This document shows positions 18,822-38,174 of a DNA stretch of 52,265 bases, piece by piece. The DNA lies in NCBI GenBank assembly GCA_031423655.1, contig JANPFZ010000274.1, positions 1 to 52,265 on the forward strand. Direction: 5' to 3'. The stretch comes from Polaromonas sp. GTDB lineage: Bacteria; Pseudomonadota; Gammaproteobacteria; Burkholderiales; Burkholderiaceae_C. The translations under genes and the position numbers were made by a program. The notes beneath the pieces are model-generated. The model worked only from the letters and a program-made list of their open reading frames with translations, was not told where the DNA came from and ran no database searches. Within the stretch, counting starts at the first letter, position 1. Each line of letters starts with the position of its first letter.

Positions 18822-19358
18822 ATGTTTAAATTTATATCAATTTTGGCAGGTTCCCTGCTTTTTGGGGGCATGACCGCGTCGCCTGCCATGGCTCAACAGA
18901 CTGGCAATCAGGCATCAAAGTCCGTTGATGCCACGCTCTCTGTGTTCCGGGTCGGTAAATCCGCAGAGGGAAAAGAAACTTTGCTGCCCGCCGACAAAGC
19001 CGCGCCTGGCGACACGCTGGAATACCAAACCGTTCATAAAAACAACGGCAAATCCACCATCAAGTCACTGGTGGCCACGCTGCCCTTGCCGGACGGCATC
19101 AGCTACCTGCCAGGCAGTGCCAAGCCCGCCAATGCCGAGGCCAGCGTAGACGGCAAAGTTTTTGCCGCCATTCCGCTCAAAACCATGGTCAAAAATGCCC
19201 AGGGCAAGCTTGAAGAGCGGCCGGTGCCTTATTCAGACTACCGCGCCCTGCGCTGGGCACTGGGCGAATTGCCTGCCAATGACCAGGCAACCGTCAGCGC
19301 GCGAGCCGTCGTTGACCCTGTTTCTGGTGCCGTCGCCACGCCGCAGAAGGCGAAGTAA
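18822..19358 (+). CDS. small secreted single DUF11-like domain, C-terminally truncated and lacking isopeptide residues (putative chaperone/cap, operon 1)
   Basis: Signal peptide (..SPAMA/Q), AAPGDTLEY..KNNG, TLPLP in place of TDxLP, RWALGEL. Alternative start GTG 18810. Confidence 0.8.
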   Translation: MFKFISILAGSLLFGGMTASPAMAQQTGNQASKSVDATLSVFRVGKSAEGKETLLPADKAAPGDTLEYQTVHKNNGKSTIKSLVATLPLPDGISYLPGSAKPANAEASVDGKVFAAIPLKTMVKNAQGKLEERPVPYSDYRALRWALGELPANDQATVSARAVVDPVSGAVATPQKAK

Positions 19359-19592
19359 CGTGCCCTTCCTCAACGTGCAAAACACCCGCACGCTTCGCAG
19401 CGCAGTCCGCGCTGCCCGCCAGGCCCTCCAACTTCACTCCATTGTTGCACTGGATCCCCCTGTGCAAAGGAGGGTACCCAATAGCTAACGCCTGCGGCGC
19501 GGCGAAGAGTTCGAGGAAAAGTTAGTGAACGTCCCGCTTTAGTTTTCAGTTTTATTTTTAGTAGAAATCAATTTAACGAGGAGATGTCAGAA

Positions 19593-22241
19593 ATGACTCA
19601 CACATCAAACCCATGGTCCAGTGCCGGAGCAAAGCTCCAGAGCATCTGGATCGCCTTCGCGGCTATCGCTGTTTTCTTCCTGCTCTTTGCCGGGTCCGGT
19701 CACGCGGCATCGCCGCTGGCCGGCACCAGCATCGGTAACCAGGCTTCGGCCACCTATGTTGACGGTTCAGCCGTCACGCGTTCGGTCTCGTCGAACGTGG
19801 TTTCAACCATCGTGCAACAAGTCGCTGCGCTGACCATCACGCAAAACTTGTCCAAAACGGCTGCGGCCGGCACTCAGGTCAGCTACCCGGTCACTTTGAC
19901 CAACACGGGTAACGGCTCAGACACTTTCGCGTTGAGTCAAGCCAATTCCGGCGGGTTTACCTTTACGTCGGTCAGCTTCTATGCTGACGCCAACGGCGAC
20001 GGTGTTGCGGACAACACAACGCTCATTACCAGCACGGGTAACCTGGCCCCCGGCACGGTTTTCCGCTTCGTTGCTGTGGGCAATGTGCCCACTACCGCGA
20101 CCACCGGGGCCATCGACACACTGGTGATCACGGCCACTTCCGGCTTCGCCCCCGCTGTTTTTGCGGCTGTAACGGACACAACCACTATCACCGCAAACGC
20201 CGACATCAACGCCACCAAGACGATGAGCGCGGTGTCGGGTGCGTCAGGTTCCGGTCCCTATACGGTCACTTTGAGCTACAACAACACCGGCAATATCGCG
20301 GCCAGCGCCGTCAAGCTGACCGACGCGCTGCCAGTCGGCATGACCTACGTCGCAGGCTCGGGTCGTTGGAGCGTGACTGGCGCCACCGCGCTGTCTGATG
20401 CAACAGGCGACCTCAATGGCACGGCTCCGACCATCGATTACAGCGTCACCGGCAACACCGTCACGGGCATCATCAGTAGCGTGGCTGCAGGCCAGGCGGG
20501 TACCCTGACATTCCAGGTCAGCATCAACGCTAATCTGGCGGCAGCGCCGTTGAACAACACAGCGACGTTTGCCTACAACGATGGCGCCGCCGCTATTCCG
20601 ACCGCCAATACCAACACGTTTGTGTTCAGTGTGAACCAGACCGCCAGCGTCACTGCAGCCGGTTCGACGGTTGCCAGCGCCGCCCAAGGCAGCACGGTGA
20701 CTTTCAGCAACGTGTTCACCAACACCGGCAACGGTATCGACAGCTTTGATGTGGCAATTTCCACGTCGTCCTTCCCGGCAGGCAGCTCGTTCGCCCTGTA
20801 CAAGGCTGACGGCGTCACGCCGCTGGTCGATACCAATGGCAACGGCATTCCCGATACCGGTCCAGTGACGGGCATCTTGACGGCCCCTAACAACACCTAC
20901 ACCGTGGTGTTGAAAGTGACCCTGCCAGCCGGTGTCACCGGTGGCCCTTACAGCGTATCCAAAACCGCCACGTCGAAGTTTGACCCGACCAAGATCGCAA
21001 CGGCCACCGACACCCTGACGACCATCGCCGTCAACACGGTGGACTTGACGAACAGCATCAACGCCAGCACGACTTCCAGCATTGCAAGTCTGGGTGTGGG
21101 CCCGTTCGCAGGAGCGGGCGCCGGAACCATCGTTACCAACGCCACCAATCCGGGCACCACGACGCGCTTCACGCTGAATGTTGTTAATGGATCAGGTTCC
21201 ACCGGAGACACCTTTAATCTGGCTGCCAGTACCGATTCGACTTTTGGCTCGTTGACCTTGCCATTTGGCTGGACCGTGGTTTTCCGTGACAGCGCCGGAA
21301 CGGTGGTCACCAACACCGGTATCGTCGCGCAGAATGCCACAGCGACAGTATTTGCTGACGTGACGGTTCCGGCCGGCCAAGCCGCCATTCCTGGTGGTCA
21401 GGTCATCACCTTCCGTGCGTTGTCGCCTTCGACGGGTTCCGCCGACAAGATCACGGATTCAGTGATCGTCAACACCATCCGAAGCGTGACCGTGACGCCA
21501 ACCAACGTGGGCCAAGTGGTTCCCGGTGGCAGCGTGATCTACACCCACACCATCACCAATGCGGGTAACGTTGCCGAGAATATTGATGCCACTCGTACCA
21601 TTGGTTTGTCCTTGAGCGAGACGCAAGCCGGCTTCACCTCCGTCGTGTACCTTGATGCGAACAACAACAATATCATCGACGCCACTGATCCGGTCATTAA
21701 TACGGTGGCCGATCTCGGCTCCATCGCGGCTGGTGCCAGCAAGCAGTTGTTGGTCAAAGTGACGGCGTCGTCCGGTGTTGGTATCGGCGTGGTGAACACC
21801 ACCACGCTGACGGCCACCACGGCGGGCTTGATCAATGGCGCGAATGCACCTGTCATCGTCAGCACAACGGACACCACTACCGTGATCTCCGGCAACATCG
21901 TGCTGCTCAAAGAGCAGGCGCTGGATGCAGCTTGCGATGGCACGCCGGATACCGCTTATTCGGTGGCAACCATCACGACAGGTGCAATTCCTAACGCGTG
22001 TATCCGCTATCGCGTGACTGCTACGAACAACGGCTCTGCCAATGTTGATAGCCTGGTTCTGAGCGACGCGACACCAGCGTCCACGACGTACATCGCTGGT
22101 ACCAACCCGGCCGTGACCGTGCCTGCTAGCACGATCACCGCGCCGACAACCGGCAACGCCGGCACTATCAGCGCCACCATCGGCACGCTGACGCCTTCCG
22201 CCTCGGTCGTTCTGACCTTCGGCGTGAAGATCAATCCGTAA
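19593..22241 (+). CDS. secreted multi-Ig/DUF11 protein with N-terminal donor strands and C-terminal acceptor domain (putative major shaft subunit, operon 1)
   Basis: GAGGAG SD 9 nt before ATG 19593 (ORF track start 19584). Signal peptide ..GHA/ASPLAGTSIGNQASATY; ends LTFGVKINP. Confidence 0.85.
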   Translation: MTHTSNPWSSAGAKLQSIWIAFAAIAVFFLLFAGSGHAASPLAGTSIGNQASATYVDGSAVTRSVSSNVVSTIVQQVAALTITQNLSKTAAAGTQVSYPVTLTNTGNGSDTFALSQANSGGFTFTSVSFYADANGDGVADNTTLITSTGNLAPGTVFRFVAVGNVPTTATTGAIDTLVITATSGFAPAVFAAVTDTTTITANADINATKTMSAVSGASGSGPYTVTLSYNNTGNIAASAVKLTDALPVGMTYVAGSGRWSVTGATALSDATGDLNGTAPTIDYSVTGNTVTGIISSVAAGQAGTLTFQVSINANLAAAPLNNTATFAYNDGAAAIPTANTNTFVFSVNQTASVTAAGSTVASAAQGSTVTFSNVFTNTGNGIDSFDVAISTSSFPAGSSFALYKADGVTPLVDTNGNGIPDTGPVTGILTAPNNTYTVVLKVTLPAGVTGGPYSVSKTATSKFDPTKIATATDTLTTIAVNTVDLTNSINASTTSSIASLGVGPFAGAGAGTIVTNATNPGTTTRFTLNVVNGSGSTGDTFNLAASTDSTFGSLTLPFGWTVVFRDSAGTVVTNTGIVAQNATATVFADVTVPAGQAAIPGGQVITFRALSPSTGSADKITDSVIVNTIRSVTVTPTNVGQVVPGGSVIYTHTITNAGNVAENIDATRTIGLSLSETQAGFTSVVYLDANNNNIIDATDPVINTVADLGSIAAGASKQLLVKVTASSGVGIGVVNTTTLTATTAGLINGANAPVIVSTTDTTTVISGNIVLLKEQALDAACDGTPDTAYSVATITTGAIPNACIRYRVTATNNGSANVDSLVLSDATPASTTYIAGTNPAVTVPASTITAPTTGNAGTISATIGTLTPSASVVLTFGVKINP

Positions 22242-22400: not shown

Positions 22401-25400
22401 GTGCGCAGCCTAGTTGCACGCCTTATTAGTCTTTTTCTGGCGTCGCTGTTGCTCCTGGCATCGGCGTATGCCGCCACGCCGCTGGCGGGCCTGCGCATCA
22501 ACAACCAGGCCAGGGCAACCTTTTTTGACACCAACGCTGGCTTCTTCTCCACGCTGAATTCCAATACCGTCGTGGTCATCGTCCAGCCGGTGGAGGCGGT
22601 ACAAATTCGCCCGGCACAAACCTTTAATCGCTCACCTGGCTCTTTCGCTGTTTTCCCGTACCGCGTGACCAACAGCGGCAATGTAACTGCCACCTACGCG
22701 CTGACCTTCGGCAACACAACGGGCGACAACTTTGATCTGACGGGCCTGACGCTCTACCGCGACATCAACGGCAACGGCGCGGCCGATACCGGTGAGCCCG
22801 TGCTCGCCGCAGGCAGCACCATTACTCTGGCACCCGGCGAAAGTGCTGACGTGGTGTTGCAGGGGCAAATCGGTGCCGCCGTGTCACTCGGGCAAACCGC
22901 GCTGGTGAATTTCACCGCTACCAGTCAGCTGCAGGGCGCGACCCGCACCGTGACTGACACCGTGTTGACCGCTTTGGGCGCCAGCATGCGGCTGCAAAAG
23001 GGCGTTTCAAAGCTAAGCGCAGTCACCGCCGAGGTACTGACCTACACGCTGACCGTGCAGAACACCGGCAGTACCGCTGCCACGGGCGTGCCCGTGACGA
23101 TTGACGGCAGCCCTGTATCGCGGGTCGTGGTGCGTGATGCGATTCCCGCCAACACCGCGTTCGTGCGGTTGGGCCCGGCCGGCCCCGGAACACCGCTGTA
23201 CCACAGCGCTGGCACCGATGCCAATACCTACACGTCCACACCGCCCGCCAATCTGGCGCTGGTTGATGCCGTGGGTTTTGGCTTCGCCAAAATTGACCCC
23301 GGCCAGACCGTGGTGCGGACCTTCGACGTAAAAATCAATAGCAACGCGAGTGGCGATATTTTCAACACGGCAAAAGTCGGTTTTAACGACGGTTTGTCAG
23401 CGGTAGCAGCGTCAGTTGATTCGAACCAGACCACGACGACGGTTCCCAAGCTGCCGCCGACGATTGCCTATTTCCGGGACGCCGCTTTCGCGCAACCAAT
23501 CAACGTGGCCCACACGGAGCAGGTCGCTTATGTGCAGGCCAGCGCAGCGCAGTGCAATCTTGATGCGGCAAGGGTTGAGAGCTACACCGTCATCATCAAG
23601 TCGGCCATCACGGGCGACGTTGAGAGCTTCATCGCAACCGAGACGGGTCTGAATACAGGAACCTTCCGCATCGTGCCGAGTATTACCCTCACGAGCCAGG
23701 CTGGTCGTCCGGGTGACACCATACTCAACACCACGAAAAACGACACCCTTGGGGCCACCATGCTGGGTTGTGGTGGGAATGAGATCAATGTCAATTTGCT
23801 CATCGACCCCTATGGCGTGGTGTACGACGGTCGCAGCAATGCGCCGGTCAGCGGCGCCACCGTGGTCTTGTTCAACGTCAGCACCAATTCACCCGCAGTC
23901 GTTTTTCAGGCCGACGGTGTGACTCCCGCCCCCAATACGGTGGTGACCGGGTCCACCGGCCAGTATGAGTTTCCGACCGTCGCGCCGGACATGTATAAAT
24001 TGCTGGTAACCCCGCCAGGCGGCTACAGTTTTCCGTCGGTGCTGGCGCCGGCGCTTCTGGCTGCCGGTCGGGCTACCGATCCAAAAGGCTCGTATGGCGG
24101 AGAGTTCCTGGTGAGCCTGGCCACTGGCCCGGTGCGTATTGATGTGCCACTCGACGCCAGCAACCTGGGCGGCTTGTCCGTTGAAAAAACGGCGTCACGC
24201 TCAACCGTTGATCTGGGCGAGTTTGTTGACTACAGTGTCAAGATAAAAAACAGCAGCGGCCAACTGCTAGGACAGATACAGCTCGAAGATCACCTGCCAG
24301 CAGGTTTTGCCTATGTGCCGGGCAGCGCTCGCCTGAACGCAGGCACCGCGCGCCTTGATGGGTCAAAGGTGCCCGAGCCCGAGGGGGGCATCGGTCCCAA
24401 GCTCATTTTTAACGTGGGCTCCATTGCCGACAGCGTCGTCCTCACCATGAGTTACCGCGTTCGTGTGGGTCCGGGAGCCCTGCAAGGTGACGGTATTAAC
24501 CGTGCCCAGGCTTTTAGCGCGCGAGTCACTACGGGAATTGTGACCAAGGCCAGCAATATCGCAACCGCCACCGTGCAGGTGTTGCCGGGTGTTTTCAGTG
24601 ACCGGGGCTTCATCGTCGGCAAGGTGTTTGCTGACTGCAACCGCGACCGCATTCAAAACGCCGAAGAACGCGGCATTCCAGATGTGCGCCTGTACATGGA
24701 AGACGGCACCTTCGTGACCACCGACGCCGAGGGCAAATTCAGCCTCTACAACATTCGCCCCCAGACCCATGTGCTCAAGGTTGATGCCACCACCTTGCCC
24801 GAGGGTGCCCGACTGGCGGTGCTTGATGCGCGCAACGCGGGCGACGCGGCCACGCGTTTCGTCGATATGAAAAAAGGGCAGCTTTTAAAGGTGAACTTTG
24901 CTGTCGATGGTTGTGCCGTGGCCGTGCAGGAGGCCATTGACCTGCGGCTGCAGCGCGCCCGCGCCGGCTCTGAAGCCGAATTCGCCGTCAAGGCCCGCAT
25001 CACGGCCGATGGCGTCGCGCCACTGGTTGACGTCAAAGGCTTGCCCGCCAGCGGCCTTGTCGGCGTGAAAACGCCACTCATCACCAGCCCCGGTGTGAAG
25101 CCTGCTATTGCCTCGCCGGCAAAGCCTGGCACCACTTCAGAACGCCTCGACCTCGATAAATTGATGCCGACGTTTGACGCCAGGCTGCAGATTGTCAGTC
25201 CCACCGACAAACAGACCTTTGGTGTTGCGCAGACAGATGTTCTCGTCAAAGGCGCAGCCGGCAGCGACTTCCGCCTGCGCGTCAATGGCGTTGAAATATC
25301 GCAAAAACGCGTGGGCCGTAAAAGTGTTCTGGATTCCAGCGGCGTCCAGGCCTGGGAATACATCGGCGTTGATCTGAACCCTGGGCTGAACAACATTGAG

Positions 25401-28247
25401 CTGGAGCAAGTCGATTCATTTGGCAATGTGCGCGGTAAAACCGCCGTTCAGGTCAGCGCTGCCGGCAAGTTCTCCAAGCTAAGCGTGCAGGTGCCGCCCA
25501 CCGGCGTTCCTGCCGACGGCCGTAGCATGACCGAAGTGACCCTGCTTTTGACTGATGCCGAAGGCCTGCCGGTCAAGGGTCGCATTCCCGTGACGCTGGA
25601 AACCTCCATCGGCATCTGGCAGGCTGAAGACCTCGACAAAAAAGAGCCGGGCCTGCAGCTTTTCGCGGAAGACGGCGAAGCCAGGCTCATGCTGCTGTCG
25701 CCGCTCGACCCGGGCGAGGCAGAAATTCGCGCGGCATCGGGGGGCATCAAGTCCTATGCAATTGTGAAGTTCTTGCCCGAGCTGCGCCCCCTGATCGCCG
25801 CTGGCGTGATTGAAGGTGCAATTAATTTCAGAAGCCTCAACGCCCAGGCGTTGCAGCCGACGCGGTCGCAAGACGGGTTTGAGCAAGAGTTGCGGCATTT
25901 TTCACGCACCAGTGCCGACGGCAAACGCGACGCCGGCGCACGGGCTGCGTTGTTCCTAAAAGGCAAAGTCAAAGGCGACTATCTGTTAACGCTGGCCTAT
26001 GACTCCGACAAGGCATCCAAAGAACGTCTGTTCCGCGACATTCAGCCCGACGAGTTCTACCCCGTTTATGGTGACGATTCGGTCAAGGGATTTGACGCGC
26101 AATCTACCGGCCTGTTCTATGTGCGGGTAGACAAAGGCAGCTCGTATGCGCTGTATGGTGACTACACCACTCAAAGCCAGACGGCGTTTTCAAGCGGGCC
26201 GACCCGTCAGCTGAGCCAGTACAGCCGCAGCCTGAATGGCGCGCGGACCCATCTTGAGGGCGAGCAAGGTAGCCTGAATGCGTTCGCGGCGCGGACCAGC
26301 TCGCGCTCTTTCACTGAAGAATTTGCAGCGCGCGGCGTGTCGGGCTACTACCCGCTGGGCCGTACCAATATTGTTCCGAACAGTGAAAAAGTCGAGATTC
26401 TTACGCGCGACCGCAACCAGCCCACCATCATTTTGAACGCTGTGCCGCTCGCGCGTTTCACTGACTACGAAATCGAGTCGCTGAGTGGCCGCCTTCTATT
26501 TAGAAATCCTATTTCGACGCTTGACCAGAACTTCAACCAGATCTCTATTCGCGTCACCTACGAGTTTGAGCAGGGTGGTCCCCAGTTCTGGGTTTACGGC
26601 GTCGATGGACAAGTCAAGCTGGGCGATCGGGTTGAAGTGGGCGGCACCCATGTGCGCGATCAAAACCCGTTTGACAACTTCTCCATGCAAGGTGCCAATG
26701 TCGTCGTCAAGCTAGCCGAAAAAACCACCCTTAATGCCGAAGTCGCGCAAACCAGCAATGTCATCTCCGGCTCTGGCAAGGGCGCGCGGGTAGAGCTGAA
26801 GCACGAAGGCGAGCAGTTGCAGGCGCAGGCGTTTGCAGGCAAAACCACGGCGGGTTTCGACAACCCCAGCGCTTTGCTCAGCAAGGGGCGGGCAGAAGCC
26901 GGCGCCAAGGCCAAACTGAAGATTGACGACCTGACCAACATCAAGGTCGAGGCTATCCGCAGCGAAGACGCCATCACCAAAGGTGCGCGTGATGGCGCCC
27001 TGGTGGTCGTCGAGCGCAGCCTGGGTGAGAACCTTAACGGCGAAATCGGTCTGCGCTATTTCAAGGAAACAGCCATCCCGGCAGACCTCAGCACCTTGGG
27101 CGTGACGCCCAATGAAGGCACGGCGGCCCGCTTCAGGCTGTCGGGGCCGGTGCCCCATGTCTCAGGGCTCACCGTATTTGGCGAGTACGAGCAAGATATT
27201 GCCAACAGCGAAAAAAAAATGGCCGCCATCGGCGGTGAATACGGCTTGTATGAACGCAGCAAGCTTTACTTGCGCCATGAGCTGATATCCAGCCTGGGCA
27301 ACCGCTACACGCTCAACAGCACGCAGCAGCAAAACGCCACCGTGTTGGGTATCGATGCCGGCTACCTTGACGAAGGACGGGTCTTTAGCGAATACCGCCT
27401 GCGCGACGCCCTGACCGGACGCGAAGCCGAGGCCGCAATGGGTCTGCGTAACTTCTGGACGGTAGCCGAGGGCCTGCGCATCCAGGCTGGCCTGGAGCAG
27501 ATTCGCACCCTGAACGGCGTTGACCACCGAAGCGTTGCCGTAACAGGCGGTGTTGAGTACACCGCCAATCCGGACTGGAAAGTCAGCGCCCGTCTGGAAT
27601 ACCGCACCGACGTGTCGTCCAAACAGTTGCTAAGTACTGTCGGCCTGGCCTACAAAGTTTCCAGCGAATGGACCTTCCTGGGGCGCAATGCGCTGCAGAT
27701 CCAACAGGCCAAAACGGCCACCGGCGGCCGCAAGACGCAAGATCGTCTTCAGCTTGGCATGGCTTACCGCGACAGTGCCGTCAATCAATGGGACGCCCTG
27801 GGCCGCTATGAGCTAAAGCACGAAAGTGACGACATTGCGGTGGTACAAACCAAGCGGACGGCGCACATTGTATCGACCCACCTGAGCTACCAGCCGCAGG
27901 CTGATTTGGCGTTCTCGGGCCGCTACGCCGGTAAATATGTGCTCGAAGATTCCCTCGGCATCAGCAGCCGCTACACCGCGCATCTGCTGTCTGCGCGGGC
28001 CGACTACGACATTGCCCGTGACTGGACGATTGGAGTCAATACCGGCGTTTTGTTCAGCGCCGGCATGCGCAGCCGTCAGGGGGCATTGGGCGCGGAGCTG
28101 GGCCGCGTACTGACCAAAAACCTGTGGCTGTCCGTCGGCTACAACCGTTTTGGCTTCCGTGACGACGACCTCGCCAGCGAGGGCTACACCAGCAAAGGCG
28201 TGTTCCTCCGCCTGCGCTACAAGTTTGACGAGAATTTGCTGAATTGA
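22401..28247 (+). CDS. 1948-aa protein: donor strands, Ig/DUF11/SdrD-B-like stalk, large C-terminal outer-membrane beta-barrel (putative anchor/secretion pore, operon 1)
   Basis: Signal peptide AYA/ATPLAGLRINNQARATF; two complete DUF11 domains; roughly 800 aa of amphipathic beta-strands ending GVFLRLRYKF. Confidence 0.82.
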   Translation: MRSLVARLISLFLASLLLLASAYAATPLAGLRINNQARATFFDTNAGFFSTLNSNTVVVIVQPVEAVQIRPAQTFNRSPGSFAVFPYRVTNSGNVTATYALTFGNTTGDNFDLTGLTLYRDINGNGAADTGEPVLAAGSTITLAPGESADVVLQGQIGAAVSLGQTALVNFTATSQLQGATRTVTDTVLTALGASMRLQKGVSKLSAVTAEVLTYTLTVQNTGSTAATGVPVTIDGSPVSRVVVRDAIPANTAFVRLGPAGPGTPLYHSAGTDANTYTSTPPANLALVDAVGFGFAKIDPGQTVVRTFDVKINSNASGDIFNTAKVGFNDGLSAVAASVDSNQTTTTVPKLPPTIAYFRDAAFAQPINVAHTEQVAYVQASAAQCNLDAARVESYTVIIKSAITGDVESFIATETGLNTGTFRIVPSITLTSQAGRPGDTILNTTKNDTLGATMLGCGGNEINVNLLIDPYGVVYDGRSNAPVSGATVVLFNVSTNSPAVVFQADGVTPAPNTVVTGSTGQYEFPTVAPDMYKLLVTPPGGYSFPSVLAPALLAAGRATDPKGSYGGEFLVSLATGPVRIDVPLDASNLGGLSVEKTASRSTVDLGEFVDYSVKIKNSSGQLLGQIQLEDHLPAGFAYVPGSARLNAGTARLDGSKVPEPEGGIGPKLIFNVGSIADSVVLTMSYRVRVGPGALQGDGINRAQAFSARVTTGIVTKASNIATATVQVLPGVFSDRGFIVGKVFADCNRDRIQNAEERGIPDVRLYMEDGTFVTTDAEGKFSLYNIRPQTHVLKVDATTLPEGARLAVLDARNAGDAATRFVDMKKGQLLKVNFAVDGCAVAVQEAIDLRLQRARAGSEAEFAVKARITADGVAPLVDVKGLPASGLVGVKTPLITSPGVKPAIASPAKPGTTSERLDLDKLMPTFDARLQIVSPTDKQTFGVAQTDVLVKGAAGSDFRLRVNGVEISQKRVGRKSVLDSSGVQAWEYIGVDLNPGLNNIELEQVDSFGNVRGKTAVQVSAAGKFSKLSVQVPPTGVPADGRSMTEVTLLLTDAEGLPVKGRIPVTLETSIGIWQAEDLDKKEPGLQLFAEDGEARLMLLSPLDPGEAEIRAASGGIKSYAIVKFLPELRPLIAAGVIEGAINFRSLNAQALQPTRSQDGFEQELRHFSRTSADGKRDAGARAALFLKGKVKGDYLLTLAYDSDKASKERLFRDIQPDEFYPVYGDDSVKGFDAQSTGLFYVRVDKGSSYALYGDYTTQSQTAFSSGPTRQLSQYSRSLNGARTHLEGEQGSLNAFAARTSSRSFTEEFAARGVSGYYPLGRTNIVPNSEKVEILTRDRNQPTIILNAVPLARFTDYEIESLSGRLLFRNPISTLDQNFNQISIRVTYEFEQGGPQFWVYGVDGQVKLGDRVEVGGTHVRDQNPFDNFSMQGANVVVKLAEKTTLNAEVAQTSNVISGSGKGARVELKHEGEQLQAQAFAGKTTAGFDNPSALLSKGRAEAGAKAKLKIDDLTNIKVEAIRSEDAITKGARDGALVVVERSLGENLNGEIGLRYFKETAIPADLSTLGVTPNEGTAARFRLSGPVPHVSGLTVFGEYEQDIANSEKKMAAIGGEYGLYERSKLYLRHELISSLGNRYTLNSTQQQNATVLGIDAGYLDEGRVFSEYRLRDALTGREAEAAMGLRNFWTVAEGLRIQAGLEQIRTLNGVDHRSVAVTGGVEYTANPDWKVSARLEYRTDVSSKQLLSTVGLAYKVSSEWTFLGRNALQIQQAKTATGGRKTQDRLQLGMAYRDSAVNQWDALGRYELKHESDDIAVVQTKRTAHIVSTHLSYQPQADLAFSGRYAGKYVLEDSLGISSRYTAHLLSARADYDIARDWTIGVNTGVLFSAGMRSRQGALGAELGRVLTKNLWLSVGYNRFGFRDDDLASEGYTSKGVFLRLRYKFDENLLN

Positions 28248-28252
28248 TTTTG

Positions 28253-31200
28253 ATGCGCTTATCTTCTTTTTTGCGGACCTGGTTGGCGACCTTTGTTGCG
28301 TTTGGCCTCGCGCTCGCGCTGATGCTGGCAAGTCCGGCGGCGTCGGCTGCGATCACTTTTGATCCGACGCCCTCCACTGGCAGTTCCATCTCGAACCAGA
28401 TGGAAATCATTCAGGACGCTGGCAACGCCGCGCTGTCGGGGGCGTATCTGGGTGTGCGGTTTAGCAGCAACATAGCACTCACCAATGTTTACGCACGCGC
28501 AACGGTGGGCGGCACGAGTTACGTACTCGATGCAACGGAAGCGCAGGATCATTTTATTGGCGACTTGAGCGGTACAGCTAAAACTTCCTATTGGTTCATC
28601 AACTACCCGACCAGCGGCAATGGCACGTTCACCGTACAGATCTACGCCGGTAACCCTGCGGCTGGGGGTGTGTTGCAAGGTACTTCAACTACATATACTG
28701 TAAGTAGTGCTAACGCAGACAACTCTGCTTCAGCAAACAAGATCGTCAGCGTCGCGGTGGTGCCGTCCAGCCTTCAGCTCGGCCAGACCTTCAACGTCGT
28801 GGTTTGCTACAGCGTGAACTCGACTGCCAGGCTGCTGGTACAGCCCGCCATCAGCTCAGCCTTCGACCCGAACAACCTGCGCCTGGGCAATGTGGTGGTC
28901 GATATTTACGGCAGCGCCGACTGTACTGGTGCAGCCACGGCGACGTTGGCAAACCAACTCCTGTTCGAGGGGCCGATCTCATCGAACAGTGCCCGGGCAA
29001 CCTACACGTTTCAAACCGTCGGTACCGTTAGCGTGGCGCTGACACCCATTGTCAGCGCGCGCAGCGGCATCTACAAGTACAACGCCGATTTCAATACGCC
29101 TCCCGCCGGCGTGAGCTACACCGTTCCGGCGCCGTCCAACAGCGTTACGCTGGCCAAGAGCGTGAACATCGCCACGAACTCGGTCGGAAACATCACCGTC
29201 ACCTACACGATCACCGCCACCAATGCCGGGTCTGCATCCGTGGTGCTGGACCAGATCATCGACACGCTGCCGTCCAGCCCCGGCGCGGTGACCTACACCG
29301 CGAACAGCACGACGGTAAATGGCAGCGCCCAGGCCAGCTTCAACCCAGTGGTCTCGGGGCAGACGCTGACCTGGGGTAGCACCGGAAACGCAGGCACCAC
29401 GTTCACCGTTCCGGCTGGTGGCACCATGACCATGGGTTTCAATGCTGTCATTCCTGCTGCCAACGGTGTCTACATCAACAGCGCGATCGCAAAGATAAAT
29501 ACCACCCAGATTGACGCGACGGCGGCTACCGGGGACAGTGCACCCGCCACTGCCACGACCCGCATCGGTCCACCGGTGCTGGTGATCACCAAGACTGCGG
29601 ACACGCCGACGATCATCAACACAGCTGCAGGTACCACGGCGCGCTACACCCTCAAGGTGACAAACAGCGGTACTGTAGCGACCAGCGTCATGCTGAACGA
29701 TACCGCGTTGCCCTCGGGGTTTGCGTACCTGGCCACGGTGGCCGTTAACACCCCAACCAGCGGCAGTTGCCCAACCGCCGCCACGCGCACCAGCGCGGTC
29801 AATCCTGTTGTTGGGGCCACCAGCCCGAGCTGGGGGAGTTTCAGCATTCCGGGTGGTTGCGAGGTGTCCGTGCAGTTTGACGCCAGCGTGGCAAGCAGCG
29901 TGGCCGACGGCACTTACAGCAATAGCGCCACCACGACCACAGCGACAGCGGGTGCCACCATCACCAACTTCGATGGCACGCCGACAGCAACCATTGCTGA
30001 CAACGTGACAGTGACCAGCCCGGTGCTGGCGGTAACAAAAACCACCAGCACGCCGAACGTCGCGCCTTTGGGTACTGCGACATACACCATTACCGTCACC
30101 AACAGCGGTACGGCAAACGCGGCTGGCACCAGGGTGACCGATACCTTGCCAGCAGGTTTCGTCTACACCGGCACAACCAGCGTGACGGTCAACGGCGCTG
30201 CTACTGCGGCCTATACGGCCGGAGGTACGGTAGCGGCACCGCAGTGGGATACCAACCCTGCAGGTGGCTTTACTGTCAACGCAGGCCAAACGCTGGTCAT
30301 TGTTTTCAATGCAACCGCGGTGGCGACGGCTGGAACCTACAACAACGATGCGTCCGCGACAAGCACTAATGCCAGGAGCATCACCAACTTTGTCGGTACA
30401 GCCAGCACTACAGAAGATGTGACAGTATCAAACATTATTTTGGCGGTGACCAAAACGACCAGCACGCCCACCGTCGTCAATACAGTGACCGGCACCACCG
30501 CCGCCTACACTGTTACCGTCACCAACAACGGCAGTGCCAGCGCCACCGGAGTCAAACTCAGCGATACGCTGCCGGCCGGGTTCACTTTTGCCAGCACCAG
30601 CAGCGTCACGGTGAACGGCGCGGCCGTGTTGCCTGCCAATTACACGCGTGCCGGTACGGCAAGCGTTCCCACTTGGGACACCAATCCGACAGGTGGCTTT
30701 ACCGTCGAGGCGGGCAAGGCTTTGGTCATTGCGTTTGTCGCCAATGTGGTCAATACGGTAGCCGATGGGGTGTACAACAACAGCGCCACTACCACCAGCA
30801 CCAACGCGACCAGCATCACCAACTTTGACGGTGCGCTAGCCGCCAATACCGGCGAAGATGTCACTGTGACCAGCGCGGTGCTGGCTGTGACCAAGACCAC
30901 CGGCACGGCAACCGTCGTCAACACATCCATAGGCACGACGGCTGCTTACACTGTTACCGTGACCAACAGCGGATCGGCCAGCGCCACCGGTGTGAAAGTC
31001 AGCGACACCCTGCCGGCCGGCTTCAGTTACTCCAGCACCAGCAGCATGACGCTCAACGGCGCGGCGGTTTTGCCTGCGAATTACCTGGCTGCCGGCACGG
31101 CGGCTGTGCCGACCTGGGACACCAGCCCAACGGGCGGCTTCACAGTCAATGCCGGTAGCACCCTGGTGATTGCCTTCATGGCCAATGTCGCCAGCACGGT

Positions 31201-34003
31201 GGCCGATGGCATTTACAACAACAGCGCCAGCACCACCAGCACCAACGCCAAAACCATTGCAAACTTCGACGGCGCGGCCAGCACGACAGAAAACGTCACG
31301 GTCACCAGCGCGGTGCTGGCGGTGACCAAGACCGCTGGCACGCCGACCGTCGTCAATACATCCACAGGTACGACGGCAACCTACACCGTCACCGTAACCA
31401 ACATCGGCAGCGCAAATGCCTCAGGCGTGAAGGTCAGCGACACCCTGCCGGCCGGTTTCAGTTACGCCAGCACCAGCAGCGTGACGGTCAACGGCACGGT
31501 GGTCGCACCTGCCGGCTACACCACAGGCGGCACTGCGGGCGTGCCGGCCTGGGACACCAACCCGACGGGCGGTTTCACCGTCAATGCCGGGCAAACCTTG
31601 GTCGTCACCTTTGTGGCCAATGTCGCCAGTACCGTGGTCGACGGCATCTACAACAACAGCGCCAGCACCACCAGCACCAACGCCAAAACCATCACCAATT
31701 TCGACGGCGCGGCCAGCACGACAGACAACGTCACCGTTACCAGCGCAGTGCTTGTGGTGACCAAGACCACCGGCACCGCGACCGTGGTCAACACCTCGAC
31801 AGGGACCACTGCCAGCTACACCGTCACCGTCAAAAACAATGGCAGCACCGCGGCCACCGGCGTAGTGTTGACCGACACCCTCGCCGCTGGCTTCGGCTAC
31901 AACGGCGGTGCTGCCACCGTGACCTTGAACGGCACGGTGCTGGCAACGACTGCTTACACCGAAACGGCTGGCGCCAGCCCAACCTGGACGACCAACCCGG
32001 CCGGCGGTTTCACCATCAATGCTGGCGCAACGCTGGTGGTGACGTTTGCTGCGAACGTTGCCAGCAGCGTGGCTGATGGAACCTACAACAACAGCGCCAG
32101 CGTCACCAGCACCAACGCCAGCAGCATTGCCAACTTTGATGGCGCAGTGAGCACGACAGAAAACGTCATCGTCACCAGCGCCGTGCTGGCGGTGACCAAA
32201 ACCACCAGTACGCCGACCGTCACCAATTCCGCCAGCGGTACAACTGCAACCTATGCCATCACGGTCGCTAACACAGGCACGGCCAACGCCATTGGGGTGA
32301 AGGTCAGCGACACGCTGGCGGCCGGTTTCACCTACGCCAGCACCAGGAGCGTGACGGTCAATGGTGCCACTACGACGGCCTATACCGCATCCGGCACTAC
32401 GACCGCAAGTTGGGACACCAACCCCACCGGAGGCTTCACCATCAATGCCGGGCAAAACCTGGTGATCACTTTTGCGGCCAATGTGTCTTCAGCCGTAGCA
32501 CCTGGCACCTACAACAACAGCGCATCGGCCACCAGCACCAACGCCAAGGCCATCAGCAACTTCGATGGCGCGGCCAACATCAGCGACGACGTGACTGTGA
32601 GTGCGCCGGTTGGCGTGTCACTGTATGGCACTACCTATAACGACGCCAATCACAACCTGCAGCTTGATGGCGGCGAGAGTGGCACTGGTCTGACTTTGTA
32701 CGCCAAGCTCATTCCAGGCGCAGGCGGCAGCGCCTTGCAGGCGGTGGCCGTGAACCCCAGCACGGGCGCGTACACCCTGGTTACGGTGTCGCCGGGTAAC
32801 TACAGCATTATTTTGGACGACAACAATGTGCTGACCGACACCACGCCCACCGTTCCGGGCGGCTGGATTGGTACCGAGATGGCCGATTTCCGGCGCACCA
32901 ATGTGCAGGTTGCCGCGACCGATTTGCAAAACCTGAACTTCGGCCTGTTCAATGGCGGCAAGCTTTCGGGCCTTGTGTTTGGTGACATCGGTAGCGGCAC
33001 AGGCATAGCCAACAACGGGATAAAAGAGGGCTTGGAAGCGGGCGTCGCTGGCGTCGCCGTCAAAGTGACCAACGCGGCTGGCACCAGCATGTATGACAGC
33101 ACCGTCACTTCGGCCGATGGGAGCTACACGCTCTGGATTCCGACCGCAACAATCGCCGCCAGCCTGAAAATTGTTGAAACCAACCTGAGCGGCTACCTGT
33201 CAACCGGCGCCTCGGTGGGCAACACCGGCGGCAGTTACGACCGCGCCAGCGACAGCATCACTTTTGGCAACGTCAGCGGCGGCATCTTCACCGGCGTCAA
33301 TTTTGGTGACGTGCCGGTCAACCGCTTTGTGACCAACGGCCAGCAAAGCGGCTCGCCCGGCAATGTAGTGTTTTACCCGCACCAGTTCAATGCTGGCAGT
33401 GGTGGTTCGGTCAATTTAAGTGTCGTCAGTGCCAGCAGCTGGCCTGTCGTCATGTACCGCGACCTGAACTGCAACGGCGTGGTTGATGCACTCGACAGCG
33501 TCGTCAGCGCCGCAACAAGCCTGGTTGCCAACGAGCAGCTGTGCATTGTCAACAAAGTAAGCATCCCGGCTGGGACGGCCGTGGGAGTGCAAGATGCCGC
33601 TACGCTGCAGGCTGTATTTACCTATACCAATGCCAACCCGGCGTTGGCCGCCACGCTACTGGTCATTGACAGCACCACGGTCGGTGCGGGCTCGGCCGGA
33701 CTTGTACTGACCAAAACCACCGACAAAGCCACCGCTTTACCTGGCGACACCATTACTTATACGGTGGCCTATCAGAACAACAGCAGCACGCCCATCGGCA
33801 CCATCGTCATCAGCGACGCCACGCCCGCTTTTACGACCTTTGTATCGGCAGGGTGTGCCTTGCCACTGCCTGCGGGCATCACCGCCTGTAGTACAAGCAC
33901 TCAACCGGCTGTCGGTGGTCAAGGCGGACTGCAGTGGACGTTGACCGGCGCACTCAACCCCGCATCTGCAGGGCAGGTTGTGTTTGCGGTGAAGGTGAAT
34001 TGA
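28253..34003 (+). CDS. large Thr/Ala-rich adhesin with 8 tandem DUF11 repeats, SdrD-B-like domains and a C-terminal acceptor domain (putative tip adhesin, operon 1)
   Basis: Signal peptide ..PAASA/A; repeats VLAVTK..YTVTVTN.G..SDTLP..YNNSA; ends VVFAVKVN. Confidence 0.85.
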   Translation: MRLSSFLRTWLATFVAFGLALALMLASPAASAAITFDPTPSTGSSISNQMEIIQDAGNAALSGAYLGVRFSSNIALTNVYARATVGGTSYVLDATEAQDHFIGDLSGTAKTSYWFINYPTSGNGTFTVQIYAGNPAAGGVLQGTSTTYTVSSANADNSASANKIVSVAVVPSSLQLGQTFNVVVCYSVNSTARLLVQPAISSAFDPNNLRLGNVVVDIYGSADCTGAATATLANQLLFEGPISSNSARATYTFQTVGTVSVALTPIVSARSGIYKYNADFNTPPAGVSYTVPAPSNSVTLAKSVNIATNSVGNITVTYTITATNAGSASVVLDQIIDTLPSSPGAVTYTANSTTVNGSAQASFNPVVSGQTLTWGSTGNAGTTFTVPAGGTMTMGFNAVIPAANGVYINSAIAKINTTQIDATAATGDSAPATATTRIGPPVLVITKTADTPTIINTAAGTTARYTLKVTNSGTVATSVMLNDTALPSGFAYLATVAVNTPTSGSCPTAATRTSAVNPVVGATSPSWGSFSIPGGCEVSVQFDASVASSVADGTYSNSATTTTATAGATITNFDGTPTATIADNVTVTSPVLAVTKTTSTPNVAPLGTATYTITVTNSGTANAAGTRVTDTLPAGFVYTGTTSVTVNGAATAAYTAGGTVAAPQWDTNPAGGFTVNAGQTLVIVFNATAVATAGTYNNDASATSTNARSITNFVGTASTTEDVTVSNIILAVTKTTSTPTVVNTVTGTTAAYTVTVTNNGSASATGVKLSDTLPAGFTFASTSSVTVNGAAVLPANYTRAGTASVPTWDTNPTGGFTVEAGKALVIAFVANVVNTVADGVYNNSATTTSTNATSITNFDGALAANTGEDVTVTSAVLAVTKTTGTATVVNTSIGTTAAYTVTVTNSGSASATGVKVSDTLPAGFSYSSTSSMTLNGAAVLPANYLAAGTAAVPTWDTSPTGGFTVNAGSTLVIAFMANVASTVADGIYNNSASTTSTNAKTIANFDGAASTTENVTVTSAVLAVTKTAGTPTVVNTSTGTTATYTVTVTNIGSANASGVKVSDTLPAGFSYASTSSVTVNGTVVAPAGYTTGGTAGVPAWDTNPTGGFTVNAGQTLVVTFVANVASTVVDGIYNNSASTTSTNAKTITNFDGAASTTDNVTVTSAVLVVTKTTGTATVVNTSTGTTASYTVTVKNNGSTAATGVVLTDTLAAGFGYNGGAATVTLNGTVLATTAYTETAGASPTWTTNPAGGFTINAGATLVVTFAANVASSVADGTYNNSASVTSTNASSIANFDGAVSTTENVIVTSAVLAVTKTTSTPTVTNSASGTTATYAITVANTGTANAIGVKVSDTLAAGFTYASTRSVTVNGATTTAYTASGTTTASWDTNPTGGFTINAGQNLVITFAANVSSAVAPGTYNNSASATSTNAKAISNFDGAANISDDVTVSAPVGVSLYGTTYNDANHNLQLDGGESGTGLTLYAKLIPGAGGSALQAVAVNPSTGAYTLVTVSPGNYSIILDDNNVLTDTTPTVPGGWIGTEMADFRRTNVQVAATDLQNLNFGLFNGGKLSGLVFGDIGSGTGIANNGIKEGLEAGVAGVAVKVTNAAGTSMYDSTVTSADGSYTLWIPTATIAASLKIVETNLSGYLSTGASVGNTGGSYDRASDSITFGNVSGGIFTGVNFGDVPVNRFVTNGQQSGSPGNVVFYPHQFNAGSGGSVNLSVVSASSWPVVMYRDLNCNGVVDALDSVVSAATSLVANEQLCIVNKVSIPAGTAVGVQDAATLQAVFTYTNANPALAATLLVIDSTTVGAGSAGLVLTKTTDKATALPGDTITYTVAYQNNSSTPIGTIVISDATPAFTTFVSAGCALPLPAGITACSTSTQPAVGGQGGLQWTLTGALNPASAGQVVFAVKVN
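30434..32603 (+). repeat. coding tandem repeat, 435-nt period (DUF11 units)
   Basis: Units start at 30875, 31310, 31745 and 32180 (exact 435-nt spacing), with a near-identical unit from 30434. Confidence 0.9.
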
Positions 34004-34570: not shown

Positions 34571-34974
34571 AGTTCTAACGCGTGCAGTAATTTTGCCGAC
34601 CATCTATGCAGGCGAGAAATTCCGGGTCTTAACCAGCTTTCCTGGCCGAATTCAACGGCCGTCTTGAATCTGAATAACGACACATTACGTACTTTAAGTT
34701 ACTCAATTTGTTGATAAGAACCATATGGTTACGCTCGATATTGGGTTTTTTGGGGATGAGCAAAAGTGTGGGTTTTTCCACAAAATCTTCATCTTTGTTT
34801 GTCTGTAGGACATACGCTTGTTCTTCTGTCGGCCCAGTCTCATTAAAATACGAGTTGTTACGATTCGTAAGTGGTTTTGGGCATTTGGAACCGTATGAAG
34901 CGATTTGCAAAGTATTGAAACGAAAAAGCTGCATCGGTCTTGTTCTTCCAGTCGTCATTTTTTCTGATGGTGCC

Positions 34975-36003
34975 GTGACTCTTTTTGTATCTGTCTGTCC
35001 AATAGGAAAGTGCCTCGCTGCGTTGGCCGCTGCCGTGGTCGGCCTGGCCACGTTCAGCGTATTTGCGGCCGGTACGCCAGCCGGCACACCTATTGCCAAC
35101 TCGGCCACGCTGAGCTATTCCATTGGCGGCCAGGTCGGCGTCCCGCTGACTGCGTCTGCACCGGTGATCACTGTCGCCGAGCTGATCAACGTGGTGTTGA
35201 CCTGGCAAGACGGAACGCCGGTAAGCGTGAATTCGCCCGACCCCGGCAAGGCGCTGGCCTTTTTGCTGACCAACACCGGCAACGGTCTGGAAACCTTCCG
35301 GCTTACCCGCAACAACGCAATTGCGGGCGACCAGTTTGACCCGGTCAGTGCGCCCACCGGCTCGGTCTACCTTGAAAGCGGCTTGCAAGCGGGTTTTCAG
35401 GCCACCGGCCCGAATGCCGACATCGCGTATGTGGCGGGCGTTAACGACCCTGCCCTGGCGGCAGACGCCAGCAGAACGATTTATCTTTACAGCAGCATCC
35501 CGGCTGGCCAGGCTACGGGCGCCCTGGGCTACGCCAGCCTCACGAGCGTATCGACCACAGTTGGCGCGCCCGGCGCTGTGCCGGGTACCACGCTGACCGG
35601 CCTGGGGCAGGGTGGCGTTGACGCGGTCGTCGGCGGCAGCCGGGCGCAGGCTGTTGCGCAGGGCACGTACATCGTCTCGGGTATCGCGCTCAGTGTGGTG
35701 AAGGCTGTTGTTGCGGTGCAAGACCCACAGGGCGGGGCCGTCGTGATGCCAGGCGCCGTGCTGACCTACCGCGTCACGCTTGCCCTGACCGGAGTTGGCA
35801 TCGCCGACAACCTGTCGTTTAGCGATCCACTGCCGCTGGCTACCACCTTTGTGCCTGCCAGCATCACCGTGGATGGCAGCGCCAGAACCGACGCCGTTGA
35901 CACCGACAACGCCAGTTTTTCTGCGGGCGCGGTGGCCGTGGTGTTCGGAAACACCGCAGCGCCTGCCACCCGCGTCATTGAATTCAAAGCCACGGTTAAT
36001 TAA
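34975..36003 (+). CDS. secreted donor+acceptor DUF11 subunit (putative minor/adaptor pilin, operon 2)
   Basis: Start uncertain; GTG 34975 gives a normal signal peptide ..SVFA/AGTPAGTPIANSATLSY. Ends IEFKATVN. Confidence 0.78.
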   Translation: MTLFVSVCPIGKCLAALAAAVVGLATFSVFAAGTPAGTPIANSATLSYSIGGQVGVPLTASAPVITVAELINVVLTWQDGTPVSVNSPDPGKALAFLLTNTGNGLETFRLTRNNAIAGDQFDPVSAPTGSVYLESGLQAGFQATGPNADIAYVAGVNDPALAADASRTIYLYSSIPAGQATGALGYASLTSVSTTVGAPGAVPGTTLTGLGQGGVDAVVGGSRAQAVAQGTYIVSGIALSVVKAVVAVQDPQGGAVVMPGAVLTYRVTLALTGVGIADNLSFSDPLPLATTFVPASITVDGSARTDAVDTDNASFSAGAVAVVFGNTAAPATRVIEFKATVN

Positions 36004-36069: not shown

Positions 36070-36606
36070 ATGCGCAACACCCTGATCAAACTTATCTTCG
36101 CCAGCCTTGCCGGTCTGGCCGTAACAGTCACCCCGCTGGTACATGCGCAAGCCCAGACCCCGGCCCAGGCCCAGGCCCGCCCTGCGGCCGGCAATATCGA
36201 ATTCAAAAACGTCGCCGAAGTCGAAGTCGAAACCCAAGCCGCTGACGGCAAGGTTGAAAAGAAACGCGTGCCCGTGCAAAAAGCCATTCCCGGCACGGTG
36301 GTGTTCTACACCTCGACCTTTAAAAACACCGGCGCCAAAGCGGCCGGCAACATCAACGTCACCAACCCGGTCCCCGCCAACACCACCCTGGTAGCCGCCA
36401 GCGCCTACGGCGAAGGCATGGACATCAGCTACTCGGCCGATGGTGGCAAAACCTGGGCTGCAGCCGACAAGGTGAAGGTCAAGGGCGCCGACGGCAAAGA
36501 GCGCCCAGCCGCCATTGGCGAGTTCACCCATGTCAAGTGGACCCTGCGCGGTGAACTGGCTGCCGGCAAGCAGGCAGAAGCGGGCTTTCGCGTCGTCATC
36601 AATTAA
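36070..36606 (+). CDS. small secreted truncated DUF11-like domain lacking the catalytic Asp (putative chaperone/cap, operon 2)
   Basis: GGAG SD; signal peptide ..VHA/Q; AIPGTVVFY..KNTG, TNPVP, KWTLRGEL; ends FRVVIN. Paralogue of 18822-19358. Confidence 0.85.
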   Translation: MRNTLIKLIFASLAGLAVTVTPLVHAQAQTPAQAQARPAAGNIEFKNVAEVEVETQAADGKVEKKRVPVQKAIPGTVVFYTSTFKNTGAKAAGNINVTNPVPANTTLVAASAYGEGMDISYSADGGKTWAAADKVKVKGADGKERPAAIGEFTHVKWTLRGELAAGKQAEAGFRVVIN

Positions 36607-36844: not shown

Positions 36845-38107
36845 ATGAAAACACTTTTTAAAAACACATTGACCCGACCGGTCATGGCAATCGCGCTGGC
36901 GATGGCCGGTCTTGTCGCTGGCGGCGCGGCCCATGCAGCCGGCACGGGTGCCGGCACTGCCATCACCAATCTGGCCACGCTGAATTACTCGGTCGGCGGC
37001 GCACCGCAGACGGCCATCGGCTCTTCTGCAGCAGGTAACACGACTGGCGCCGGCACCGCGACTTCGTTCGTGGTTGATAACAAGATCAACCTGCTGGTAG
37101 CGACCACCGACACGACCTTTGTGTCCGTCGTTCCGGGCCTGACCGGTGTCGCTGGTGCCAACCCGAACGGCGCGTCGCAGGTGACAACATTCACGGTCAC
37201 CAACTCCGGCAACAGTACCCAGGATTTCTCGCTGGTAGCAGCCAGCCTGGCCAGCGGCACGACTTTGTTCGGCGGCACCGATAACTTTGACGGCACAGCC
37301 TGCGTGGCCCGCGTTGAAAGCGGCGGCACAGCGGGCTATGACGCCACCGATACCGCGATTTTCATCGACGAACTGCCTGCCGATGGCGTGCGAACCGTGT
37401 ATGTCATCTGCGCGATTCCGGTGGCGCGTGTCAATAACGACGTCGCCGTCGTCTCATTGACGGCTACCGCGTTGGTCGGCGGAGGAGTTGGCGCGCAAGG
37501 CGCGGCGCTGGTCGAAACCACCGGTGCCAACACGGCCGGCGTGGACATCGTGTTTGCAGACGGCGCAGGCACCGATGATTTGGCCCGCAATGCCAACTAC
37601 TCAGCGCGTAGTGCGTTCAAGGTCGTCACCGCCACGTTGACTGTCACCAAGTCAGTTGCAGCGGTCTGCGACCCCCTTAACGGCAGCACCAACCCGAAAA
37701 ATATTCCGGGCACCTTCGTTCGCTACACCATCACGATTGCCAACACTGGCGCGGCTTCGGCAACGCTAAGCACGGTCGGCGACACCTTGACCAATCTGGT
37801 GACCTTCGACGCCAACCTGATCACAGGAGCCGGCGGGCCAGGCACGGCGGCAACTACGTGTGCCGCTGCCACCGGAACGCCGACCTCGGCAGCAGGTTCC
37901 GGCTTCCTGGTGCCTGCCGTGGGCGCTCGGGCCGGCTTTCCGAAGTACTTCACCACGACCAGTACGGCGGACGGTATTGACCTGACTGGCGGTAACGTCG
38001 TCAACGTCAATTTCGGTCAAGTGTTGCCGGTTGAAGCCGGCTACACCGCCGGCGAGTTGAAAGCCACCGAATCTGTGTCGGTGATCTATCAAGTCCTGAT
38101 CAACTAA
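36845..38107 (+). CDS. secreted donor+acceptor DUF11 subunit (putative major shaft subunit, operon 2)
   Basis: AGGA SD, ATG 36845; ..AAHA/AGTGAGTAITNLATLNY; ends VIYQVLIN. Confidence 0.85.
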   Translation: MKTLFKNTLTRPVMAIALAMAGLVAGGAAHAAGTGAGTAITNLATLNYSVGGAPQTAIGSSAAGNTTGAGTATSFVVDNKINLLVATTDTTFVSVVPGLTGVAGANPNGASQVTTFTVTNSGNSTQDFSLVAASLASGTTLFGGTDNFDGTACVARVESGGTAGYDATDTAIFIDELPADGVRTVYVICAIPVARVNNDVAVVSLTATALVGGGVGAQGAALVETTGANTAGVDIVFADGAGTDDLARNANYSARSAFKVVTATLTVTKSVAAVCDPLNGSTNPKNIPGTFVRYTITIANTGAASATLSTVGDTLTNLVTFDANLITGAGGPGTAATTCAAATGTPTSAAGSGFLVPAVGARAGFPKYFTTTSTADGIDLTGGNVVNVNFGQVLPVEAGYTAGELKATESVSVIYQVLIN

Positions 38108-38138
38108 AGCGGGTCTTGAACCTGACTTTGAAAGTCTT

Positions 38139-38174
38139 GCAACCCTCCAGCGCGGTTCGCCGCCTGGGGTTTGC
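38139..38174 (+). terminator. GC-rich stem-loop after putative major subunit gene
   Basis: CCAG-C-GCGG-TTCG-CCGC-CTGG stem, extendable to GCAA/TTGC. Confidence 0.45.

Follow-up and report, generated by a model that had tools for sequence, protein, structure and literature searches.

The window, by which we mean the whole stretch of 52,265 nucleotides analysed here, is occupied by two adjacent operons of DUF11 proteins, as recovered by open reading frame and family searches (Table 1). Operon A reads A1, A2, A3, A4 and operon B reads B0, B1, B2, B3, B4, with A1 and B1 as the small genes with which this study is concerned. The frames that had been assigned to them in an earlier, sequence-only reading are right, at 178 aa apiece; a GTG at 18810 is a possible alternative start for A1, but its closest homologues are 178 aa long and start from the same Met. 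No additional copy was found across the 3.56-Mb assembly. Low-GC stretches precede both operons (18100-18800 at 45% and 34010-35000 at 48%, against about 60% elsewhere) and are likely regulatory regions; no sigma-70-like promoter was found ahead of A1.

Table 1. Genes, reactive sites and insertions of the two DUF11 operons (positions in the window).
Feature	Position	Strand	Description
A1	18822..19358	+	178 aa, unreactive acceptor-only DUF11 protein; opens operon A
A1 second hairpin insertion, KTMVKNAQGKLEERP	19179..19223	+	Hairpin predicted in the B1 model
A2	19584..22241	+	Pilin-like, 885 aa; N-terminal donor Asn52 (19737)
A2 C-terminal truncated acceptor	Lys776 (21909), Asp828 (22065)	+	
A3	22401..28247	+	1948 aa; N-terminal donor Asn35 (22503), DUF11/SdrD-B domains
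A3 C-terminus		+	Predicted outer-membrane barrel region, from sequence pattern
A4	28244..34003	+	Tip-like adhesin; tandem complete DUF11 repeats; no donor
A4 C-terminal competent acceptor	Lys1824 (33713), Asp1858 (33815)	+	
B0	34708..36003	+	Minor pilin-like subunit; true start probably near 35000
B0 sites	Donor Asn 35098; acceptor Lys 35701, Asp 35824	+	
B1	36070..36606	+	178 aa, unreactive acceptor-only DUF11 protein; operon B
B1 second hairpin insertion, KVKVKGADGKERP	36469..36507	+	Outside the listed donor interface
B2	36845..38107	+	Major pilin-like subunit; predicted B1 client
B2 start	ATG 36845	+	Likely start; frame open from 36647
B2 sites	Donor Asn 36968; acceptor Lys 37649, Asp 37781	+	
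B3	38116..43752	+	1878 aa, barrel-type; donor Asn 38326
B4	43764..48314	+	Tip-like adhesin; complete DUF11/DUF7933 repeats; no N-terminal donor
B4 C-terminal acceptor	Lys 47877, Asp 48015	+	

The complete DUF11 repeats in the window have an invariant Lys, Asp and Asn, and match at E 4e-8 the sequence of the CLIPPER structure, for which a Lys715-Asn806 bond and Asp748 are described (PMC12617251). A2, B0 and B2 have the closing hairpin of such a domain, Asn motif included, at their start and, at their end, a domain broken off ahead of that hairpin; A3 and B3 carry the hairpin (the donor) only, and A4 and B4 the unfinished end domain (the socket) only. The donor is a two-strand hairpin in the complete repeats, in the pilin model and in the complex model, and its motif, G-T-x-I-x-N-x-A, is carried by A2, A3, B0, B2 and B3. 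Read at the level of sequence, these proteins would assemble into a head-to-tail fibre, locked by isopeptide bonds and running from tip to barrel. The socket of B2 has two peculiarities: its Asp motif (37781-37795) is DTLT, not D-x-L-P, and it harbours a long insertion, modelled with low confidence, at model residues 296-344.

A1 and B1 are 28% identical. Both match TIGR01451 above its cut-off (E 4.3e-7 for A1 and 1.6e-10 for B1), whilst for PF01345, with a cut-off of 24.6 bits, B1 lies above at 24.8 bits and A1 below at 20.4 bits. Each is a single domain, unlike the two-domain PapD_N/PapD_C, and neither gave a PapD-type Pfam or NCBIfam match at E values up to 0.1. The description of both as catalytically dead acceptors without a donor peptide is borne out at each site concerned: the donor motif is missing from both proteins; the catalytic D.LP is replaced by TLPLP starting at 19077 in A1 and TNPVP starting at 36361 in B1, the Asp column being Leu87 (19080) and Asn99 (36364), respectively; and the first-strand Lys site is Leu39 (18936) in A1 and Asn47 (36208) in B1. 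Lys46 of B1 sits one residue before that site, with outward parity. The two proteins are probably secreted, as had been claimed, given that signal peptides can be seen by eye in their sequences (about residues 1-24 in A1). Lipoprotein anchoring was considered and discarded; loose lipobox-like matches occur in 9 of 279 homologues, which include neither A1 nor B1.

The AlphaFold model of mature B1, built on a 93-row alignment (pLDDT 92.7), is a sandwich with two protruding hairpins. Against CLIPPER 9IFR (VIA Z 8.6, rmsd 2.3, 90 aligned, chain range 18-109) the model stops at position 92, past the last core strand, and the Asn is at position 101, the numbering of 9IFR being taken as sequence position plus 17 as inferred from its 123-residue chain. 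The fold is therefore a truncated acceptor, as proposed from the sequence: the B1 model ends before the two last strands, and the closing strands with their Asn, which a CLIPPER isopeptide domain requires, are missing. The A1 fold ends near Asp165 (19314), followed by a 13-residue non-conserved tail, and the chain end is the last strand in 58 of 79 representatives. The small proteins belong to the fold family, with a TIGR01451 match and a CnaA-like Ig sandwich, and lack all three attributes of an isopeptide domain (Lys, Asp and closing strands). Since the Z score is middling and tied with those of other Ig folds, the DUF11 assignment leans on sequence as well. Foldseek returned no match to the small-protein model at E values up to 0.001, its top match being TTHA1873, which is also the tied-best VIA match (Z 8.9-9.0, 99-101 aligned); with the pilin model it returned generic Ig-rich chains only. 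The closest atlas clusters to the small protein are hypothetical or DUF11. Searching PDB sequences gave weak matches to sialidase Asp-boxes and to 9IFR (E 0.075). AbpX, a TasA-like protein in the available text of its description (10.64898/2026.01.04.697558), appeared in the same search at E about 1, which we treated as chance.

Both small proteins had been said to carry Lys-rich hairpin insertions. The insertions are present, are predicted to be beta-hairpins, and are Lys-rich in A1 and B1; across the family it is the hairpins themselves that are conserved and not their Lys content, with Lys making up 7.8% of the hairpin segment compared with 4.6% elsewhere and being wholly absent from that segment in 32 of 79 representatives. 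A further hairpin extends strand A. Among the most conserved family-specific features is S-x-D-G, outside the listed donor interface; in B1 an Asp-box-like SADGGKTW is found at 36433-36456, with a weak PF02012 match.

The Lys assignment needed a check of register, because a global profile alignment (hhalign) set the pilin Lys four residues later, at a site that is Lys in 29 of 79 representatives. We set this alternative register aside on the strand boundaries of two models, the end points of the 9IFR alignment and the complex interface. Strand A begins four residues ahead of Lys238 in the pilin model and of Asn47 in the B1 model, and strand B, whose end in the pilin model is the conserved Asn, is the same in the small-protein model. 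In the ungapped opening stretch of the 9IFR alignment the Lys of 9IFR falls on model residue 21, which is Asn47, and the complex interface described below includes B1 model residues 15-23 and excludes residue 25. At the later site A1 has Arg43 and B1 has Val51, so there is no Lys in either register.

Conservation of the Asp/Lys loss across homologues, which had been put forward as a check, proved complete for Lys and partial for Asp: none of 279 distinct homologues has Lys (3 are gapped at the site), whereas Asp is kept in 13 of 279, and in 8 of the 79 representatives under 60% identity. By comparison, both Lys and Asp are kept in all five pilin and tip end-domains of the window, and Asn11, Lys238 and Asp282 are invariant in 38 of 38 B2-type pilins (34-48% identity). 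A loose Lys/Asp pattern, which fits 119 of 144 acceptor candidates, was discarded as a count because 33 of the 279 small proteins match it too. A residual doubt attaches to the 10 of 279 homologues that have Asp together with Lys at the later site, and that could react if our register were wrong. These two residues coincide in a subgroup from one family, f40 (L008, L012, L016, L017, L021-L024 and others), which is possibly a partly reactive form. At another locus (L033:9207-10854) the operon is headed by two tandem small genes, one of which keeps Asp (VDPIP) while the other has Asn.

We surveyed the distribution of the small gene at several depths. In a phylum sample of 401 genomes, scanned with a small profile and a separate barrel profile, barrels of at least 245 bits were found at 37 loci in 34 genomes, our own included. 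A full-length small gene was present in 27 of these 34 genomes, and in the other seven, which were re-searched, the operon is cut by a contig end; it was in place at 22 of the 23 loci where the fetched stretch spans the operon, and lay 350 kb from the operon in one genome (G204). In one family (f48) the pilin B2 was matched in 33 of 101 genomes, with a small-gene match just upstream at all 30 returned loci, and in another (f8) the small gene occurs in 42 of 42 genomes with a high-scoring barrel and is absent from the one genome that has a low-scoring barrel only. Far from being absent from most homologous loci, the small gene is thus carried by nearly all of them (30/30, 42/42 and 27/34 in the three surveys), although these counts are tallies and not tests, because kin are not independent. 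Within the operon it was also found on plasmids of Deinococcus sp. QL22, Synechococcus NIES-970, Kovacikia minuta and Acinetobacter haemolyticus, the breadth outside Pseudomonadota being that of three plasmid records. Among the small genes of this fibre system, which is widespread, it is the most constant.

At low-scoring barrel loci that lack pilins the small gene was absent in 18 of 18 cases, two of them truncated; the small-profile scan scored 8 candidates per genome, and three genomes re-searched in full were still negative. The low-scoring barrels adjoin one giant adhesin, and separate pilins and the donor motif are absent. These loci (L059-L076) pair a shorter relative of the barrel with one giant DUF11 adhesin and lack the small gene; an OmpA-like domain is often present, and the loci are likely a separate system for adhesin export or anchoring. 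Single-query searches returned less: within the family to which the window belongs, B2 matched in 1 of 200 other genomes, and a scan of the genome collection with A1 alone gave 2 loci. In a profile search of 1.84 billion proteins the top 150 were dominated by long DUF11-repeat adhesins. A search for fused or longer forms gave nine matches, all ordinary DUF11 repeat proteins covering less than 55% of the query, which argues weakly against fusions.

In a quick tree of 83 sequences, A1 and B1 fall in separate parts, each closest to the small proteins of operons with a similar barrel, which suggests two old operon types that have each kept their own small gene. Variations on the layout were seen elsewhere. 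Three loci (L107:11487-11996, L108:18151-18681, L109:2800-3333) have a second, divergent small gene at the far end of the operon, on the opposite strand and facing it; these branch with B-type proteins and their operon is A-type. In two cyanobacteria (L094:12454-18611, L095:12469-18098) the donor-bearing N-terminal part of the barrel protein is a separate gene, and on the Acinetobacter haemolyticus plasmid (L096:7459-10293) the annotation splits the pilin gene into six pieces, while the tip, the barrel, the small gene and the OmpA gene look whole.

The small gene also exists on its own. In the f8 family, 12 of 54 genomes with the small gene gave no barrel match; one of these is fragmented and has a pilin beside the small gene, and one genus (g72) is barrel-less in all seven sampled members. 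Eight orphan-bearing genomes that were checked (99-100% completeness) contained no other DUF11 match, and ten of the orphans form one clade (SH-aLRT 99). The fold was therefore retained, at least once, in the absence of the fibre system, and the word 'dedicated', which the sequence-only reading had used, claims too much for the whole family. The orphans (L097-L106, L050, L051, L091) lie amid housekeeping genes, and a number of them have long low-complexity N-terminal extensions rich in Pro, Thr and Gln, giving forms of about 300 aa; the start of L102 is lipobox-like.

Donor binding by the small protein had been suggested from its acceptor fold, and structure prediction agrees with it. The predictor was given the whole mature pilin B2, so that donor binding, socket filling or neither were all possible outcomes for B1. 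Three runs of B1 with B2 gave ipSAE values of 0.82, 0.81 and 0.82, against 0.00 for three controls, and agreed in at least 94% of contacts with a partner pLDDT of at least 90. The score mark used is reached by 116 of 157 solved pairs compared with 2 of 215 mismatched pairs, a calibration that is approximate for the alignments used. The B1 model takes the N-terminal donor hairpin of B2: the contacts on B2 comprise residues 1-49 and seven residues of the middle domain, and no listed B1 contact lies in B2's own socket (residues 234-389). The first donor strand is placed antiparallel to the Asp-site strand of B1, with Asn11 beside model residues 73-74 (Asn99/Pro100), and the second pairs with strand A. 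The prediction supports a B1 that accepts rather than donates a strand. It covers this one pair and speaks to placement, not to affinity or release, and since B1 plus a donor rebuilds a complete CLIPPER-like domain, the pass may reflect likeness to solved folds.

We propose that A1 and B1 are periplasmic holders that reversibly bind the donor hairpins of pilins during fibre assembly, acting as inverse chaperones, a proposal that we rate as evenly poised between right and wrong. Masking of donors is invoked because each pilin bears both reactive halves. Free pilins of this kind would lock together in the periplasm, or else the donor of the barrel protein would lock onto the first socket it met. 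The open socket of the small protein would take in the donor hairpin in its native register, without forming a bond, and so mask it until the barrel is reached, where a competent socket on the growing fibre would take over the hairpin and the covalent bond would make the exchange one-way. The isopeptide reaction would on this scheme be timed and placed by acceptor exchange, not by donor-strand exchange. Charged residues make up 20% of the small proteins in the window and 6-11% of its pilins and tips, and across loci the KRDE median is 20.7% for small proteins compared with 12.7% for pilin sockets, the small protein having the higher value in 66 of 68 loci. Such a high charge is as expected for a soluble helper, not a fibre subunit, and we infer from the sequences that the small protein stays in the periplasm. 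Reversible donor binding is chemically plausible by analogy with non-reactive SpyCatcher, as the accessible account describes variants with the catalytic Glu changed, Asn included, that bound their tag reversibly (PMC6465384). A two-strand insertion may nonetheless be too stable for release without help from the barrel. The more general picture, of a natural inverse chaperone in which a pseudo-subunit conserved in Pseudomonadota, Deinococcota and Cyanobacteriota sheathes a reactive donor hairpin and hands it over at a giant outer-membrane barrel, is one that we hold tentatively and would place a little on the doubtful side.

Other roles have to be weighed against that of a holder, and two of them begin from the same predicted interaction. 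The small protein might be a non-covalent end cap, remaining on the outermost pilin's free donor hairpin as a minimal tip that starts or ends fibres without a large adhesin. An acceptor groove without a donor of its own is the topology of the tips, donor-strand filaments generally need a terminal subunit according to the accessible part of one account (PMC9715654), many of the fetched loci have no tip within 20 kb, and the predicted donor binding would be identical. A permanent cap would benefit from a bond, yet the Lys has been lost in 279 of 279 homologues, both window operons already encode a competent tip, and the charged composition is unlike that of fibre subunits; we regard a cap as unlikely. 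The protein could instead act mainly on the barrel protein, plugging the donor hairpin with which that protein begins; this would prevent the chain from being anchored or ended too early and thereby set fibre length. A3 and B3 do share the donor motif of the pilins, and over 35 loci the small gene and the barrel co-vary (Mantel rho 0.62, 0 of 2000 permutations), a result that linkage alone could yield. The small gene usually sits directly ahead of the major pilin gene, however, and binding to the pilin donor is itself predicted to be good, so that a plug seems quite unlikely. Taken together, the three readings in which a donor is bound, by holder, cap or plug, have our reasonably firm confidence.

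Two further readings dispense with donor binding. An accessory with another job, such as a barrel or cell-wall adaptor or a folding aid, would have a groove that is incidental or meant for an unrelated partner. The orphan clade, long-lived in genomes with neither pilins nor barrel, points this way, as do the conserved S-x-D-G-G, the two hairpins and an Arg before an invariant Trp, none of which falls within the donor interface as listed. Against such a role, which we consider rather unlikely, stand the close linkage of the small gene to operons that have pilins, its absence from those that have none, and the native-register donor binding that is predicted. The remaining reading is that of a conventional chaperone, in which a hairpin of the small protein fills the unfinished socket of the pilin. 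PapD and FimC donate a strand into the groove of a subunit in this way, as unfinished Ig sockets normally require, and the small protein has two protruding hairpins that might serve. ElrE, in the part of its description that is accessible (10.64898/2026.10.17.759780), is a further donating chaperone. When the whole pilin was offered, the listed contacts missed its socket, and we judge this reading highly improbable.

Where one subunit bears the two halves of a covalent link that seals itself, something has to restrain it until it reaches the assembly site, and an inverse chaperone, if the proposal of a reversible holder is true, would represent a new logic of pilus assembly. It would also supply two ready-made catchers for a single tag, one reversible and one covalent, with the small protein as a natural reversible partner in a new Tag/Catcher pair, and the players are small (a 15-kDa protein and a 45-residue donor peptide). 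No publication on the fibre system was found in a literature search from whose coverage subscription journals were largely absent.

Several known systems share elements with this one. The CnaA-like sandwich of CLIPPER/DUF11 domains (PF01345, TIGR01451, 9IFR) is common to CLIPPER and the small protein, but the latter stands alone, lacks the last two strands with their Asn, the Lys and mostly the Asp, and has two hairpin insertions. The CLIPPER paper concerns intramolecular bonds in tandem stalk repeats, and in its main text, as far as this is accessible, the words 'donor', 'chaperone' and 'operon' are absent (PMC12617251). TTHA1873 from Thermus thermophilus (7WRK, 7WWN, 7WWO) is likewise a small stand-alone protein, its function being given as hypothetical in the entries' accessible text; it likely keeps its closing strands, since the alignment covers residues 17-146 of a chain of 158-160 residues. 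BsaA (PMC11580942) and the archaeal thread (PMC9715654) are similar in being head-to-tail donor-strand polymers with an intermolecular isopeptide lock, and differ in fold (TasA-like or other), in host (monoderm or archaeal) and in having no outer-membrane barrel; the accessible portions of these two descriptions show no dead acceptor, and the putative archaeal thread cap, Saci_0405, is described there as donor-only (PMC9715654). SpyDock (SpyCatcher E77A), as set out in the accessible text, resembles the small protein in being a catcher half stripped of a triad residue that holds its tag reversibly, but it is engineered, has a CnaB fold and binds a one-strand tag, whereas the small protein is natural, CnaA-like, suited to a two-strand hairpin and has lost two triad residues (PMC6465384). 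With PapD/FimC (as summarised in the accessible part of PMC9715654) and ElrE the small protein has in common that its gene is a dedicated, non-structural one within an operon that encodes the tip, shaft and barrel of a donor-strand pilus, and it likely guards a subunit interface before assembly as they do. Those chaperones lend a strand, whereas the small protein is predicted to accept the hairpin of a subunit and, unlike PapD, consists of one domain, which is homologous to the end of the subunits themselves. We would class it as a pilus assembly helper of a new, inverted type.
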